Shown here one piece after another: positions 1,654-6,835 of a stretch of DNA of 12,220 bases (position 1 is its first letter; each line of letters begins with the position of its first letter). The notes under the pieces are model-generated. The model did no database searches. It was not told the DNA's origin and saw nothing but the letters and a program-made list of their open reading frames with translations. The stretch lies in the IMG/VR virus record IMGVR_UViG_2693429662_000017; one strand, 5' to 3'. The stretch comes from a virus (Duplodnaviria; Heunggongvirae; Uroviricota; Caudoviricetes). The translations under genes were made by a program, and so were the position numbers.

Positions 1654-1770
1654 TTAAAAACGATATCCTGCTGAGAACATAAACACCCACGGATCGAGGC
1701 GTACGCTATCGTGTTGCTGTGCACCGCCCAGCTTATAATTGGCGGTGGTATCGATATCCATGTACCACAC
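1654..1770 (-). pseudogene. ompW: ompW 3'-terminal fragment (last ~38 codons), displaced by prophage integration
   Basis: Seen: the - strand frame reads ...VWYMDIDTTANYKLGGAQQHDSVRLDPWVFMFSAGYRF then stop (stop codon 1654-1656), with an in-frame TGA at 1780-1782 cutting it off upstream and no start codon. Established: this matches the C-terminus of E. coli OmpW as recalled, and ompW lies convergent to yciE in K-12. The ORF-track call 1614..1814 is in a different frame and is not this gene. Confidence 0.55.
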
Positions 1771-2080
1771 TGGTAGGTTTCAAAAAACACAATAACCAAT
1801 TGTATTTGAAGCAAAAAACAAGACTTTGAGATGTTTTTTTGTACCTTTTTTTTATGTTTTTAACTGTCTGATTTTATTGAAATCTTTTTTAGTTTTGCAG
1901 AAGGAATTTTTTACTTGATTGTAACTTTTTCGTTTTTTTGGGGCTAATTGACGCGCAATGCTGGGCGGGGAGCGCACAGCCAAAAAAACCGAAATTGACC
2001 GCTAATTACTGCCAATCATCATCGCTCTGATTGAGCGTAAATCATTCAGGTTATTCAGTTCTTCCTTCTGCTCTCGCTGA
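1771..2080. other. AT-rich non-coding region at the prophage end, candidate attR arm
   Basis: Seen: ~300 bp with no credible ORF, multiple T/A tracts and an 8-bp A/T palindrome around 1812-1838 (AAAAAACA...TGTTTTTT). Inference: its position between the truncated ompW end and the phage cargo is where integrase arm and IHF sites would be. The exact core cannot be fixed without the other prophage end. Confidence 0.3.
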
Positions 2081-2082
2081 CG

Positions 2083-2253
2083 TCAATAAATCCCATCATT
2101 GCGATCAACCTCATCCTTAACCATTGATGCGAGCAGTTCTTCCAGTTTCTGCGCTGATAGCTTTACCTGGTGATCTTCAGCATCTTCCCGGGCTATTGTG
2201 GTTCGCGCAGTGGCTGATTTTGCTGACATCACCACAGGGGGCAGACGGACCAT
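2083..2253 (-). CDS. Hypothetical small acidic protein (56 aa from ATG 2253; 48 aa if ATG 2229)
   Basis: Seen: ORF MVRLPPVVMSAKSATARTTIAREDAEDHQVKLSAQKLEELLASMVKDEVDRNDGIY, with GGAGG 10 nt upstream of the ATG at 2253. The ORF track's longer 2364 start would read through the repeat hairpin and is unlikely. No recognisable family; coding status uncertain. Confidence 0.3.
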   Translation of the reverse strand: MVRLPPVVMSAKSATARTTIAREDAEDHQVKLSAQKLEELLASMVKDEVDRNDGIY

Positions 2254-2317
2254 TGAACCATGGCCTCCGGAACAAATAAGGGCAAAAATAACAACCACTA
2301 TCGAAAGCTCACAAACT

Positions 2318-2533
2318 AACCGCAGCACGTTCCTGCATACGACGTGTCTGCGGCATAATCCCAATGATTACTCCCTGACAGGATTTGCAGGCCACTCAAT
2401 ATCAGGTGCAGTTGATGTATCAACACGATTCAACAATACCCGATATTTATTCCATGCCTCCAGCAACGATCTTTCTTCCTCCGTTGCGATTTCCAGATCT
2501 ACAGCATCCTGCAGTGGCGCAATATACTCACTG
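2318..2533. repeat. Direct repeat copy B (~215 bp, ~90% identical to 3368-3583): tfa 3' end plus downstream hairpin
   Basis: Seen: by-eye alignment of 2318-2533 with 3368-3583, including the hairpin CCGCAGCACGT...ACGTG(T)CTGCGG at 2320-2353 and the shared CATAATCCCAATGATTACTCCCTGACAGG block. Similarity is lost on both sides. Confidence 0.65.
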
Positions 2534-2637
2534 AATTCCTGGATGTAGAACTGTGTGGTGACGGTCTTCCAGCCATTCGGCTCCTGCTGTATCGAAGCAT
2601 ACCAGGCTATTTCAATATCGCTATGCTGCGGCAGCAT
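2368..2637 (-). CDS. tfa: Short tail fibre assembly-like protein (89 aa): unique 38-aa N-terminus fused to the conserved Tfa C-terminal ~51 aa
   Basis: Seen: ATG at 2637 with AGGGG 4 nt upstream and an in-frame TAA immediately before it. The C-terminal [51 protein letters not shown] is about 90% identical to the C-terminus of the full tfa at 3417-4001. Could be a functional short chaperone or a recombination remnant. Confidence 0.5.
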
Positions 2638-2645
2638 TTAACCCC

Positions 2646-2674
2646 TTGTAATTCATCGCCATAATTGATTTAAT
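2646..2674 (+). promoter_or_regulatory. Candidate sigma70 promoter for the methyltransferase gene
   Basis: Seen: TTGTAA (2646-2651), 17-bp spacer, TTTAAT (2669-2674), about 20 bp upstream of the ORF. Inference only; the -35 overlaps the RBS of the divergent tfa-like ORF. Confidence 0.25.
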
Positions 2675-2693
2675 TCACAAACAAAACTATAAC

Positions 2694-3362
2694 ATGGTGA
2701 AATCAATGAAAAAAAACACAGATGATGGGGCTAAAATTTACACACCACTTACCCTAAAGCTTTATGACTGGTGGGTTTTGGGAGTATCAAATCGGCTTGC
2801 ATGGGGATGTCCTACAAAGGAACACCTTCTTCCACACTTTCTGGAACATGTAGGTAACAACCATCTGGATATTGGTGTTGGAACTGGGTTTTACCTTACT
2901 CACGTACCTGAGAGTAGTCTGATATCTTTAATGGATTTGAACAAAGCTAGCCTGAACGCGGCATCTACAAGGGCTGGGGAATCAAAAATTAAACATAAAA
3001 TTAGCCATGATGTTTTTGAACCTTATCCCGCGGCGTTACATGGTCAATTTGATTCCATTTCCATGTTTTACCTTCTTCACTGCCTGCCTGGAAATATATC
3101 TACAAAAAGCTGTGTAATACGCAATGCGGCGCAGGCCTTAACTGACGATGGAACTCTATACGGAGCCACAATTCTTGGCGATGGAGTTGTGCACAATAGC
3201 TTCGGTCAAAAACTGATGCGCATTTACAATCAGAAAGGCATCTTTTCAAACACAAAAGATTCCGAAGAAGGCTTAACACATATACTCTCAGAGCATTTCG
3301 AGAATGTTAAAACCAAGGTTCAAGGTACTGTAGTAATGTTTTCCGCTTCAGGGAAAAAATAG
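2694..3362 (+). CDS. Class I SAM-dependent methyltransferase, substrate unknown (222 aa; alternative start ATG 2706 gives 218 aa)
   Basis: Seen: Rossmann motif I LDIGVGTG at residues 58-65 (nt 2865-2888), acidic beta2 end LISLMDLN (D81), and FDSISMFYLLHCLPG as a motif II/III-like strand. The ORF looks AT-rich by eye compared with the flanking tail genes and is convergent with tfa. GGTGA sits 5 nt upstream of the second ATG at 2706. No (D/N)PP(Y/F) or PC motif, so not an obvious DNA methyltransferase. Confidence 0.7.
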   Translation: MVKSMKKNTDDGAKIYTPLTLKLYDWWVLGVSNRLAWGCPTKEHLLPHFLEHVGNNHLDIGVGTGFYLTHVPESSLISLMDLNKASLNAASTRAGESKIKHKISHDVFEPYPAALHGQFDSISMFYLLHCLPGNISTKSCVIRNAAQALTDDGTLYGATILGDGVVHNSFGQKLMRIYNQKGIFSNTKDSEEGLTHILSEHFENVKTKVQGTVVMFSASGKK

Positions 3363-3367
3363 CATCC

Positions 3368-3583
3368 AACCGCAGCACGTTCTTGCTTAAGACGTGCTGC
3401 GGCATAATCCCAATGATTACTCCCTGACAGGGTTCGTAGGCCACTCAATATCAGGTGCAGTTGATGTATCAACACGGTTCAGCAACACCCGATACTTTTT
3501 CCAGGCTTCCAGCAATGAGGTTTCTTCCTCCGTTGCAATTTCCAGATCTGCAGCATCCTGAAGCGGCGCAATATGCTCACTGG
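3368..3583. repeat. Direct repeat copy A (~215 bp): 3' end of the full-length tfa plus downstream hairpin
   Basis: Seen: aligns with 2318-2533 at about 90% identity. Together the two copies bracket an ~0.85 kb segment carrying the methyltransferase gene. Confidence 0.65.
3370..3402 (-). terminator. Hairpin between the convergent methyltransferase and tfa genes (probable tfa terminator, possibly bidirectional)
   Basis: Seen: perfect 11-bp stem CCGCAGCACGT / ACGTGCTGCGG with an 11-nt loop. On the - strand it is followed 8 nt later by TATTTTTT; on the + strand it lies 8 nt after the methyltransferase stop with no U-run. Confidence 0.45.
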
Positions 3584-4001
3584 CTACCTGCATCAGGTTG
3601 TTTTTTGTTTCTTCCGCCTCCCGGATCCGGAACATTTTTTCTGCTTCCGTATCCTTCACCCAGGCTGTGCCGTTCCACTTCTGAAACTCCCCTTCCGGCG
3701 ATAACCAGGTAACATTTTCCGGTAACGGACCGAGTTCAGAAATAAATAACTCGTCCCCTGACGCTACGTCATAAACCGTTTTACCCCGATGGTCTTCAAC
3801 GAGATGCCACGATGCCTCATCACTGTTGAAAACAGCCACAAAGCCAGCAGGAATATCTGGTGGTGCAATATCGGTACTGTTTGCTGGCAGACCTGTATGA
3901 GGCGGAATATATGCGTCACCTTCACCAATAAATTCATTAGTTCCGGCCAGCAGATTATAAATTTTTATGGTCCGTGCTTGTTCACTCATTCTGAATGCCA
4001 T
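3417..4001 (-). CDS. tfa: Tail fibre assembly protein Tfa (194 aa)
   Basis: Seen: ATG at 4001 overlaps the stf stop by 1 nt (TAATG), implying translational coupling. Established: the product ([24 protein letters not shown]...) is near-identical to lambda Tfa as recalled. Confidence 0.9.
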
Positions 4002-6835
4002 TATGCAAGCCTCACAATATAGTTAAATGCGATGTTTTTGACGGTGTTTTCCGCGTTACCAGCAGCGTTAACGGTGATGGTGTGTCCATGTGAACCAATC
4101 GCAACGGAGTGCGTATGCGCACCAATACCTACAGTATGTGCATGTGCGCCAGAACTTGCTGCAGTACCAGACAGCGAGTGGGTATGAGCACCTGCTGACT
4201 GTGTCTGAATACGTTGATAATACGATCTACGGGAAGAAGTCTCCGGGCTTACTTGATACTGTGAATCCTGGACATAAGTGAACCCACCGCCATCATAAAA
4301 TGCTAACGCAGAACCGCCGCCTCCTGGCCAACGAATACCATTACCATGAGTATGATCACCGGCAGCCCCCGTAGAGCCACTCAGACTGTGCGTATGCGCC
4401 CCGGTGTTATTCGTGGATTTGGTTCCGTAATCAAACGACGATGTGTTTTTCGTCCCCAAATCCGTACTGGATGCGCTGGCGCTGTGGGTGTGCGATTTAA
4501 TGCCGTCCTGTTCCTGAGACAATACGGCACGACCACTGGCGGGTTTGCCCTTAATCGTCCAGCCACGCATATCAGGGATCACGCCTGACGGATAAGCGGC
4601 TGCAAGTTTCGGGTATGCAGATTTGTCAAAAGTCTGCCCCTGCATCAGGGCATAACCAGACGGAACGGTATCTGATGGCCACGGGATTGGTGCGCCGACT
4701 GGGTAGCTTTCTGGTGGAAGATTTTTCGAGGTATAAACTTCTGCCCAGTCTTCCTCAAAACCATAACCGTCTCTTGAAGAACGGTAGAACAGACCACCAT
4801 TTCTGTAATGCGCCTTCATCTGCAAGGTCCGGCAACTTCCGACTCCGGTATAGAAGTTAACCAGAATATAGCTGTCGCCAGAGCGGGTGACATTGTAAGC
4901 GCCTGATTCGGCATTCCAGGGAACGGCTCCATCCGAATCCGCATAAGCCCCCGTCGAACGTCGGGCAAATGCACCAATATTTTCCGGCGTGAGGTTAATA
5001 TCCGCCGAGCCATCAAACTTAACACCGTTAATTTTTGGGTCTGCCGCAAGTTTCGTCGCGGTATCGGCGTTCCCCTTCAGTGCCCCGGTGATCCCATCAG
5101 TAACAGACAACGGACCTGAAATAGTCCCTCCAGTTGTTGGCAGCGCTCCAATATCTGATGGTGTAGGTTTCTGATGTGAGCTATACATCGTATAAACAAC
5201 ACCATCGGTAACGCTGGAAGGCTTACTCGCTGAATATGTTAGCGAGGTATAAATAGAAACTGACGCATTTGTAGTACAATCCCAATGGATATTTACACTC
5301 GTCGCATAATTGCCAATCTCAACGTAAATATCATATATATCGCCGGATGTGTTGATCCAGGCGAAATTCGTTAATCCGACGGCTGTACGCTTCCACAAAG
5401 CTCCGGTAATCCCTTTGGGGTTTCCATTGCCTGCTCGTAGAACCAGTTCAGATATACCTGCCTGTTGAGGTGCCCCCACGTTAAATCCAGCGCCACCAAT
5501 CAATGCGATGTAAACGATGGAACTCGCTTGTGGCATGGTAACCGTTGCCAGTTTGAACCACCCTGCCCCGCCAGAGAAAGAGATCGTTACTGAATTTAAA
5601 GTGCCAATATCTTTCGGTGTTAATGTTATATCCGCAGTCAGTGCTTTCCCGTTAACTTTTCGGTTAGATGGTACCCTGCCATTCGCATTGTCATTCGCTG
5701 CTTTAACTGCCTTCGGTGTCGCGGCAAGCGTTTCAGATGTGCTGTTGGTTGCACTGCTGAGCTGTACTATCCCCTTTTTCGTCGTGCTCGCATCCTCAAG
5801 CGCCACGGCGGATGCAATATCCTCTGCCCGTTTTGCCGCTGTCTCGGCGCGCGTTGCCGCGGATTCCGCCGTACTTTTGCTCTGAGCTGCCGCCGTCGCA
5901 CTGCCAGCTGCCTCTGTCGCCTTCGTGGATGCCGTCGTGGCGCTGCCCTTTGCTGCTGACGCCTGTCTGGTCGCCTCATCTTTTGAAGCAGACGCAGATG
6001 ATGCCGATGACGCCGCCGAACTGGCGGACGATGCGGCAGCCGTTTTTGAGGATTCTGCGCTGGTTTCCGAGGCTTTCGCGTTCGTTTCGGATGTCTTCGC
6101 TGCCTCTTTTGAGGCCGCCGCATCCCGTGCTGAAGTGGCTGCTTCTGACGCTTTCGTGGTCGCGGTGGATGCAGAAGTGGCTGCTGATTGTTGTGACGCA
6201 GCCGCATTCGTTTCTGACGTTTTCGCCGCACCGGCACTGGTAGCCACCGCGCTTTTTGAGGACTCTGCAGCGGCAGCACTTTTTGATGCTTCAGTAGCCT
6301 TTGTTGATGCCGTTCCTGCGCTGGAAGACGCTGACTGAGCCGACGTCGCGGCCTGCCCGGCTGATGTGCTGGCTGCACGTGCTGAGCCTGCAGCATCAGT
6401 CGCATGGGTTGCCGCCTCACTGGCAGATATGCTGGCATCGCTGGCTGACTTCTTCGCGGCTGCCGTGTTCTGTGCAACCGCGGAGGCGTTACGTGACACC
6501 TCTTCTACCATCTGCTCAAAGCGGCGCAGTGCCTCCGGTCGGACATCATCCTCCGTCATGGCACCGAGAAAATCATTCAGCGTACCTGGTCTGGAACCTT
6601 CATAGACGATAATGGTCCCGGCATGTGAAGGCGGAAAACCTTCAACCAGCAGGGTGACGCTGTACTGACCATGCTCAACATCCATGCTGTAACGTCCGGC
6701 TTCATCCGGATTTTCAGAGGCCACCGTGTTCACCACCACCGTGCTGCTGGTTCGTCTGGCCTTCAGCACAATGGTGCAGTTCTGTACTGGTTTTCCTGTG
6801 CCATCTTTAAGCACGCCAGAAATTTTTACTGTCAT
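4001..6835 (-). CDS. stf: Side tail fibre protein Stf (944 aa), mosaic
   Basis: Seen: GGTGGA RBS 5 nt upstream of the ATG at 6835; Ala/Ser/Thr-rich low-complexity region at residues ~120-345; C-terminal His-x-His repeats ([24 protein letters not shown]). Established: N-terminal ~120 aa and C-terminal ~230 aa match lambda Stf as recalled, and His-x-His repeats are a fibre-tip feature. Inference: the central ~330 aa differ from lambda. Confidence 0.9.

Follow-up and report, generated by a model that had tools for sequence, protein, structure and literature searches.

An intact ybcY-type allele encoding a predicted class I methyltransferase on a presence/absence cassette of an ompW-site lambdoid prophage

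The cryptic prophage DLP12 of Escherichia coli K-12 contains the pseudogene ybcY (b0562), which is annotated as a putative S-adenosylmethionine (SAM)-dependent methyltransferase. Genomic systematic evolution of ligands by exponential enrichment (SELEX) in K-12 showed binding of RpoD holoenzyme and of H-NS to the ybcY/tfaX spacer, and the same study named TTGATT-17-TATAAC as the ybcY promoter (PMC3946193). A related gene adjacent to rmpA in Klebsiella has been listed only as a marker of liver-abscess or hypervirulent strains (PMC5126061; PMC9372168), and a regulatory role of the Rhodococcus equi relative pVAPA_0470 is speculation only (PMC5434932). None of ybcY, STM1638, pVAPA_0470 and the rmpA-adjacent gene is the subject of functional work in the literature searched, and no function has been reported there for either the K-12 copy of ybcY or the type of copy described here. 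Here we analyse a methyltransferase gene on the plus strand, at positions 2694-3362, of a 12,220-nucleotide stretch of viral DNA (Caudoviricetes; IMG/VR record IMGVR_UViG_2693429662_000017), hereafter the window. The reading that we prefer, with a probability of roughly 0.6, is that this gene is a moron in a lambdoid prophage at the ompW site, encoding a small-molecule or lipid-headgroup methyltransferase that is expressed in the lysogen and benefits the host cell.

Judged by nucleotide alignment, the window gene is an intact allele of K-12 ybcY. The two copies share 97% nucleotide identity over the aligned stretch and have like flanks, with tfaD on one side of the K-12 copy and a tfaX fragment, followed by appY and ompT, on the other. 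Comparison of the K-12 MG1655 locus (L013, 6153-6807) with window positions 2694-2712 located a 2-bp deletion in K-12 (ATTAAT--AAAAAAA), which loses the family-conserved ATG found at window position 2706 and shifts the frame, whereas the window copy is intact. With this conserved ATG removed by the deletion, laboratory K-12 amounts to a natural null for the enzyme. The gene is not rare, as matches with at least 98% identity are present in 3832 of the 5426 complete E. coli genomes (~70%), at 4877 places in all, with up to four per genome. It is annotated in RefSeq as 'class I SAM-dependent methyltransferase'. Fourteen records of lambdoid phages carry it too, among them ev243, 2G7b and phages obtained by induction of ECOR strains.

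The coding sequence and its putative ribosome-binding site are placed as follows.

2706-3362, plus strand: methyltransferase coding sequence from its probable true start (218 amino acids plus stop codon; the maximal open reading frame begins at 2694)
2696-2700, plus strand: GGTGA, Shine-Dalgarno-like, 5 nt upstream of the ATG at 2706, read from the sequence

The open reading frame (ORF) list of the window gives positions 2694-3362 as an ATG-to-stop frame of 222 amino acids, which the earlier note on this DNA had taken as the gene. That the ORF is a real gene, beyond chance, is evident from its Pfam match, its match to the phage protein family PHROG 2132, the 2286 homologues retrieved by homologue search and a ratio of nonsynonymous to synonymous substitution rates (dN/dS) of ~0.1 in comparison with homologues from Citrobacter, Enterobacter and Klebsiella. 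The start, on the other hand, probably has to be moved. Translation most likely begins at the ATG at 2706 (M5), 12 nt downstream of the start of the maximal ORF, to yield a product of 218 amino acids, because the homologues and PHROG 2132 begin at M5 and GGTGA precedes only this ATG. M5 is invariant, and its equivalent is the first residue in 34 of 34 aligned homologues; furthermore, the protein is a member of PHROG 2132, a family annotated as of unknown function, positions 1-218 of whose 218-position profile align to residues 5-222 (E 1.9e-156). GGTGA would serve as the ribosome-binding site for the ATG at 2706; the ATG at 2694 directly abuts the -10-like hexamer TATAAC and lacks a ribosome-binding site.

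Three Pfam families match the window protein above their cut-offs, namely Methyltransf_12 (37.1 bits, cut-off 30), Methyltransf_23 (28.1 bits, cut-off 27) and Methyltransf_11 (24.4 bits, cut-off 21.2). An AlphaFold2 model built from 35 homologues (predicted local distance difference test score, pLDDT, 91; predicted template modelling score, pTM, 0.88) has strands at residues 56-60, 76-80, 99-103, 119-125, 149-160, 202-210 and 213-221 in the canonical seven-strand order, which includes the C-terminal antiparallel hairpin. Residues 18-36 and 41-52 form the helices of an N-terminal cap, and strand 5 is separated from strand 6 by an insertion. Motif I (GxGxG) corresponds to G61-V-G63-T-G65 within LDIGVGTG (58-65), and its glycines are invariant in 33 diverse homologues. 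The acidic residue that ends strand 2, at the position contacting the ribose hydroxyls, is the family-invariant D81, which follows the LISLM strand (76-80), and strand 4 is followed by D120-S121, of which S121 is invariant and D120 is present in at least 90% of the sequences. The earlier note had proposed a class I Rossmann SAM fold from LDIGVGTG and D81 and had also quoted a YDWW...S.R.AWG segment, and both the fold and the quoted motifs are borne out, the latter including YDWW (24-27), followed by S32, R34 and A36-W37-G38. Taken together, motifs and model portray the protein as a soluble, single-domain class I SAM-dependent methyltransferase that consists of cap, Rossmann core and insertion.

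Orphan methyltransferases are common in phages and the gene lies on a prophage, which could point to an orphan DNA methyltransferase or to an anti-restriction or anti-defence role, in which it would shield phage DNA or keep out other phages. Genes of the IbrA/IbrB type, which are typical of mobile elements, also occur near homologues in Proteus, Klebsiella and Rhodococcus. However, the (D/N/S)PP(Y/F/W/H) motif and the PC dipeptide are both absent from the window protein, no DNA-methylase family of Pfam matches it at E ≤ 1, and no DNA methyltransferase is among its top 50-60 structural matches. In the AlphaFold2 model, 218 amino acids are too short to accommodate a target-recognition domain beside cap and core. 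Among the PADLOC defence models, the sole match is mad2 at noise level (E 0.018, 11.9 bits), and most family members reside in chromosomal, non-phage contexts and occur in fungi too. A function in DNA methylation or defence is thus largely refuted by motif, Pfam, structure, PADLOC and family-context evidence, and we regard it as very improbable. As regards DNA methylation, this agrees with the earlier note, which had argued against a DNA methyltransferase from the missing motifs and from the lack of an adjacent restriction partner; the neighbours are tail-fibre-assembly genes rather than restriction genes.

Two further candidates were rejected. A structure of NleE is present in the Protein Data Bank (PDB). 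An NleE-like effector of a type III secretion system (T3SS), already doubted in the earlier note, finds no support in a PDB sequence search, in which NleE gave no match at E ≤ 1 and the matches consisted of class I methyltransferases and one haemoglobin chain; the family also occurs in fungi and in organisms without a T3SS. A UbiE/UbiG housekeeping enzyme was dismissed, as neither the UbiE nor the UbiG model of NCBIfam matches the window protein; distant family members score 18-26 bits against these models, with cut-offs of 158-216. No NCBIfam model comes near its cut-off for the window protein or for 10 distant family members, and with PADLOC giving no real match and the literature searched offering no functional work, the statement of the earlier note that the protein could not be assigned to a characterised family from its sequence holds.

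Profile searches of 1.84 billion representative proteins retrieved 429 clusters (50% identity) at E ≤ 1e-30 and 1137 at E ≤ 1e-10, nearly all of which are full length. Members among the Enterobacterales include Salmonella, Citrobacter, Enterobacter, Klebsiella, Yersinia (including Y. pestis), Proteus, Erwinia, Pantoea and Photorhabdus, and other proteobacterial members derive from Pasteurellaceae, Aeromonas, Shewanella, the Pseudomonas syringae group, Xanthomonas, Dyella and Noviherbaspirillum. Further members were identified in Acidobacteria, Rhodobacterales and many ascomycete fungi, the fungal proteins being ~50% identical to those of Pseudomonas. The family is therefore not phage-specific; elsewhere its genes are mostly chromosomal or plasmid-borne, and also fungal. 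Across bacteria and fungi, 14 residues are invariant (Y16, L21, Y24, D25, G61, G63, G65, D81, S121, H129, K138, G157, N186 and D189), all of which are kept in the window protein, and W37, C39, H57, Y126, C130 (at least 90% of the family), Y178 and N179 are nearly invariant. Most of these positions belong not to the SAM motifs but to the cap, the insertion and the loop that follows strand 4, a pattern that argues for one defined acceptor.

The position of the gene within the prophage and the structure of the surrounding DNA are described by the following features.

1654-1779, minus strand: C-terminal remnant of OmpW (RefSeq annotation; translation ends ...RLDPWVFMFSAGYRF*), marking the junction of prophage and chromosome
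2002-2271, minus strand: remnant of a DUF4376 gene with an internal stop, between the ompW remnant and the tfa fragment
2318-2544, minus strand: left arm of a direct repeat, a 3' fragment of tfa (mechanical ORF 2368-2637, equivalent to K-12 tfaX) with a hairpin
3368-3593, minus strand: right arm of the repeat, the 3' end of the intact tfa with its downstream hairpin
3417-4001, minus strand: intact tail-fibre-assembly gene tfa (ORF and RefSeq annotation of a near-identical locus), convergent with the methyltransferase gene and given for context only

The window leads from the chromosomal genes yciG, yciF and yciE through the ompW remnant, the DUF4376 remnant and the tfa 3' fragment to the methyltransferase gene on the plus strand, beyond which tfa, the side tail fibre gene, lom, J and I follow on the minus strand. 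The ompW remnant (C-terminus ...SAGYRF*) adjoins yciE at the integration site of the prophage. The methyltransferase gene is situated ~900 bp from the prophage end, in line with the location given in the earlier note. The direct repeat measures 227 bp with 89-90% identity between its arms and a spacing of 1049-1050 bp (two repeat families, D1 and D2), and the left arm together with the methyltransferase gene makes up a cassette of ~1050 bp. When positions 2318-3367 were removed in silico, the resulting junction was found as contiguous sequence in at least 20 E. coli genomes. One of these genomes is that of strain EFF60 (locus L107, 3056-7379), where the locus of the same ompW-site prophage runs from yciE over the remnants of ompW and of the DUF4376 gene to tfa and the tail fibre gene and has no methyltransferase gene. 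Because of this 'empty' junction and the EFF60 prophage, the methyltransferase gene and the tfa fragment are a presence/absence cassette and a typical moron, which moves or is lost through recombination in the conserved 3' end of tfa. Its composition is odd, with a GC content of 41% and 36% at third codon positions (GC3) vs 53-57% and 68%, respectively, in the tail genes; together with the spacer bound by RpoD in the K-12 SELEX study, the 3' hairpin and the empty-site allele, these are the features by which a moron is recognized. The ompW and DUF4376 remnants suggest that the region downstream of the tail-fibre module has been scarred by recombination more than once.

The Rfam family IS009 (RF02111) has a full-length match on the minus strand at 3460-3658 (223.8 bits, gathering score 117), which lies wholly within the 3' half of the intact tfa gene and overlaps the right repeat arm; probably, a conserved stretch of tfa coding sequence had at one time been listed as a candidate small RNA. 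The side tail fibre (4001-6835, minus strand, 944 amino acids) contains a long Ala/Ser/Thr-rich repetitive segment and C-terminal histidine repeats of the GAHTHS type, and its GC-rich repetitive part is the source of long ORFs that are spurious, in other frames as well as on the plus strand (e.g., 5767-6477 and 5925-6338).

Candidate expression signals flank the gene on both sides.

2638-2693, plus strand: 56-bp spacer between the divergent methyltransferase gene and tfa fragment, with two overlapping sigma-70-like promoter candidates
2638-2665, plus strand: promoter candidate 1 from a consensus scan, TTAACC (2638-2643), 16-nt gap, CATAAT (2660-2665)
2665-2693, plus strand: promoter candidate 2, TTGATT (2665-2670), 17-nt gap, TATAAC (2688-2693), identical to the promoter proposed for K-12 ybcY
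3370-3402, no strand assigned: hairpin with a perfect 11-bp stem and an 11-nt loop, no uridine tract

The hexamers TTGATT and TATAAC are the same in the window and in K-12. If this second candidate is used, the mRNA would be nearly leaderless, while an mRNA initiated from TTAACC-16-CATAAT would include GGTGA. The hairpin at 3370-3402 begins 8 nt past the stop codon, where the methyltransferase gene and tfa converge, has a predicted RNA folding energy of -23 kcal/mol (z = -5.5 vs shuffles) and is present in a second copy at 2318-2346 in the left repeat arm. RefSeq annotates a 45-amino-acid 'hypothetical protein' (WP_001309429.1) on the minus strand at 3307-3444, overlapping the 3' end of the methyltransferase gene and the hairpin, which looks like an annotation artefact.

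With H-NS binding to the promoter region in K-12 (PMC3946193), the gene might also be a neutral passenger of E. coli, silenced by H-NS and hitch-hiking in the recombination-prone tfa region of abundant prophages. The dead K-12 copy and the absence of the cassette from the otherwise unchanged EFF60 prophage are consistent with such a role, as are the truncated variants (clusters of 161 and 130 amino acids). E. coli alleles, which differ by only 1-4 substitutions, are too similar to detect selection. The truncated clusters have just 445 and 30 members, however, vs 6589 member sequences in the full-length main protein cluster. Annotations from 59 genomes, sampled for spread, give the gene as intact; it also retains all of the family-invariant residues and is kept in inducible, plaque-forming phages, all of which makes a mere passenger distinctly improbable.

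The survey of homologue neighbourhoods proposed in the earlier note was carried out by calling ORFs in 84 homologous loci and clustering them by all-against-all BLAST. No neighbour is common to different genera among these 84 loci; the homologues stand alone and are typically monocistronic. Apparently recurrent neighbours (SDR, LysR and ABC ATPase proteins) belong to large paralogous families and occur at variable distances, and synteny within genera is uninformative (crotonase/CorA in Pseudomonas, dcp in Enterobacter and Citrobacter, ibrA/ibrB-like genes in Proteus and ompW in Pasteurellaceae). A link to a CPBP/Rce1-like gene, seen in Yersinia and in one Salmonella contig, was discarded, as the gene was absent by tblastn from all other fetched loci. 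Chromosomal homologues are located near sseJ in Salmonella and adjoin dcp in Enterobacter and Citrobacter, and the Yersinia homologue is chromosomal as well. Homologues flanked by insertion sequences (IS) were identified in Aeromonas and Salmonella, a plasmid-like contig of Salmonella carries a homologue together with ccdAB, and the Citrobacter freundii homologue resides in a setting resembling a prophage remnant. Carriage on phages, plasmids, IS-flanked segments and chromosomes would fit a self-sufficient accessory enzyme, and this stand-alone occurrence on varied DNA would argue for detoxification or metabolite modification rather than for a part of a multi-gene system. Together with the dN/dS of ~0.1, which indicates purifying selection, the 14 invariant residues and the 429 clusters, these contexts support a selected function that is independent of phage biology.

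A pair of genes encoding 3'-phosphoadenosine 5'-phosphosulfate (PAPS) reductase-like and ParB-like proteins (IbrA/IbrB type) precedes the homologue by 1.5-2.2 kb in six Proteus species (L070, L074, L085, L086, L090 and L091) and is found within 5 kb of it in Klebsiella pneumoniae ATCC 13883 (L030), and a PAPS-reductase gene lies near the plasmid copy of Rhodococcus opacus. These neighbours may reflect only shared mobile-element cargo.

In the plasmid collection, 761 records contain a homologue, of which 603 are from Klebsiella, often with two matching places per record. On a 220-kb IncFIB/IncHI1B virulence plasmid, the homologue is 543 bp upstream of, and divergent from, rmpA-rmpD-rmpC-peg-344.

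Klebsiella pneumoniae plasmid pFRPDR_1, locus L102, 8995-9648: homologue, 65% identical to the window protein

The rmpA-adjacent gene of pK2044/pLVPK-type plasmids (BAH65943.1 / WP_011251259.1) is a full-length family member with 65% identity (alignment A4) that is plasmid-borne rather than phage-borne. In the same alignment, the stand-alone gene on the Erwinia amylovora plasmid pEA29 is a full-length member with 53% identity, and pVAPA_0470, which is divergent from virR in the vap pathogenicity island of R. equi, is full length with 31% identity. The latter (Prescottella equi pVAPA1643, locus L104, 7103-7717) has GARSA in place of GxGxG, has also lost the YD motif as well as the acidic residue that follows strand 2, and may be a non-catalytic relative. 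All three genes stand alone on horizontally acquired DNA and are borne by plasmids rather than by phages. On other Rhodococcus plasmids, the homologue has lsr2, a copG-family regulator gene and a gene for PAPS reductase in its vicinity (locus L105).

The proximity of the Klebsiella copy to the regulator gene rmpA, from which it is divergent, and the regulatory role speculated for the R. equi gene (PMC5434932) raise the question of a macromolecular target (ribosomal RNA (rRNA), transfer RNA or protein), such as that of a resistance-type rRNA methyltransferase or of a regulator-modifying enzyme altering host or phage expression. A patchy, mobile and stand-alone distribution is also typical of rRNA resistance methyltransferases, and C130 (at least 90%) occupies the motif IV position of the catalytic cysteine of 5-methylcytosine- and 5-methyluridine-forming enzymes. 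Yet the protein has no additional RNA- or protein-binding domain, its 218 residues being fully taken up by cap, core and insertion, no RNA-methyltransferase family of Pfam or NCBIfam matches, and the PC/TC and ENV-type motif combinations are absent. In addition, ~50% identity between fungal and proteobacterial members is hard to square with a lineage-specific target, and the best-scoring structures and sequences are those of small-molecule enzymes. A macromolecular target is thus considered unlikely.

Under the preferred reading, that of a small-molecule or lipid-headgroup methyltransferase acting for the host cell, the gene would be expressed in the lysogen from its own promoter, probably damped by H-NS. 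SAM would be the methyl donor, and the acceptor would be a defined small polar metabolite, a toxic compound or a lipid headgroup, which would be held by the conserved cap (Y16 and Y24-D25), the loop after strand 4 (Y126, H129, C130 and K138) and the insertion (Y178-N179, N186 and D189). The benefit would fall to the host cell by lysogenic conversion and not to phage replication. Several points weigh against this proposal. The consensus promoter scan gave no more matches in the region than in shuffled sequence, the support for the promoter is in-vitro SELEX in K-12, and H-NS binding suggests that the gene may be silent under laboratory conditions. Furthermore, the putative placement of the invariant residues at the active site follows sequence register and the published PmtA structure, and the neighbourhoods of the 84 loci back no particular pathway.

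More speculatively, the family may be a repeatedly recruited host-adaptation factor, captured independently by several kinds of mobile DNA, that methylates one specific, widespread target and changes survival in hosts. The cases of recruitment would comprise the E. coli lambdoid prophages, where the gene is found by lom and ompT, the Klebsiella hypervirulence plasmid by rmpA, pEA29, the Salmonella island near sseJ and the degenerate vap island copy of R. equi, and the target could be a toxic metabolite from a host or competitor or the cell's own phosphatidylethanolamine headgroup. If this doubtful extension were true, it would be owing to the K-12 frameshift that laboratory strains of E. coli have never shown the activity.

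Foldseek comparison of the model with the PDB returned PmtA (8ys9), the R-type phosphatidylethanolamine N-methyltransferase of Rubellimicrobium thermophilum, as the top match (E 8e-12, template modelling (TM) score 0.66-0.71), followed by juvenile hormone acid methyltransferase (JHAMT), Plasmodium phosphoethanolamine methyltransferases, SgvM, CysG/BelI, CouO/NovO and UbiG. The scores form a flat plateau on which PmtA leads unrelated small-molecule methyltransferases by a small difference, and a search of viral folds in BFVD retrieved generic methyltransferases only. On the model, the fold type would be that of a compact small-molecule or lipid-headgroup methyltransferase, and nothing more specific; because the lead of PmtA is too small, the substrate cannot be assigned to the PmtA type. 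By sequence, PmtA and the window protein share 14-17% identity, PmtA being matched over the core only with a broad family profile (E 7e-4), and the window protein scores 13.5 bits with the sole NCBIfam model for PmtA (NF045882), far below the cut-off of 390, and is thus not a member of that family.

As a PmtA-like phospholipid N-methyltransferase, the enzyme would convert phosphatidylethanolamine, which is abundant in E. coli, to its monomethyl or dimethyl derivatives or to phosphatidylcholine and thereby alter the membrane surface of the lysogen. The published PmtA structure has a catalytic Tyr10, a SAM-anchoring Tyr17, the phosphate-binding residues His117 and Ser120, and Arg29. By sequence register, the invariant cap tyrosines Y16 and Y24, which are spaced much like Tyr10 and Tyr17, could correspond to this pair. 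PmtA His117, Ser120 and Val121, in contrast, fall on window positions 126, 129 and 130 (Y, H and C), and by the same register Arg29, His117 and Ser120 have no clear conserved counterpart in the window family. The isoelectric point (pI) of the family (median 8.2) is mildly basic, as would suit such an enzyme, with a value of 7.8 for the window protein, which is not strongly basic. The pEA29 copy adjoins a choline transporter gene, a neighbour that is suggestive given the PmtA-like fold; the two genes are, however, convergent (locus L103, 7001-9980) and hence form no operon, and this is a single case. The fungal members are ~50% identical to bacterial ones, while ascomycetes synthesize phosphatidylcholine by the unrelated membrane enzymes Cho2 and Opi3. 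Likewise, we know of no report of methylated phosphatidylethanolamine in E. coli, although most strains carry the gene. In sum, PmtA-like activity appears quite unlikely.

The interpretation of the earlier note, namely an orphan class I SAM-dependent methyltransferase carried as prophage cargo without a partner gene, is supported. What is added here is the identity with an intact ybcY, the corrected start and the cassette with its empty-site allele, as well as the finding that the gene is very common in E. coli and that its family is broad, conserved and repeatedly present on virulence-associated mobile DNA. A phenotype of the gene would escape work on K-12, as the laboratory strain carries a broken copy of a gene present in ~70% of complete E. 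coli genomes, and the Klebsiella relative is a statistical marker of hypervirulence owing to its adjacency to rmpA. If the substrate were known, a large orphan family would gain a function, and it would become clear whether this common prophage cargo affects the metabolism, membrane chemistry or toxin tolerance of E. coli.

With respect to known systems, the gene had already been annotated and named ybcY, and its product is a methyltransferase of an ordinary kind and not a new kind of system. The cap-plus-Rossmann-plus-insertion build of the window protein is shared with PmtA, DhpI, Coq5/UbiG, XrdM and CysG/BelI. When the PDB was searched by sequence, the single protein and two profiles alike reached the Rossmann core only, the best profile matches being XrdM, CysG/BelI, MM_2633, UbiG and NodS, with JHAMT also among the matches. 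The single protein matched UbiG at E about 1e-3, over the core only. Accordingly, the sequence similarity to UbiG/Coq5, JHAMT, DhpI, XrdM, CysG/BelI and NodS is limited to core residues ~50-165. Unlike in these compact small-molecule methyltransferases, the cap (1-50) and the C-terminal third (160-218), which contain most of the family-invariant residues, are the window family's own.

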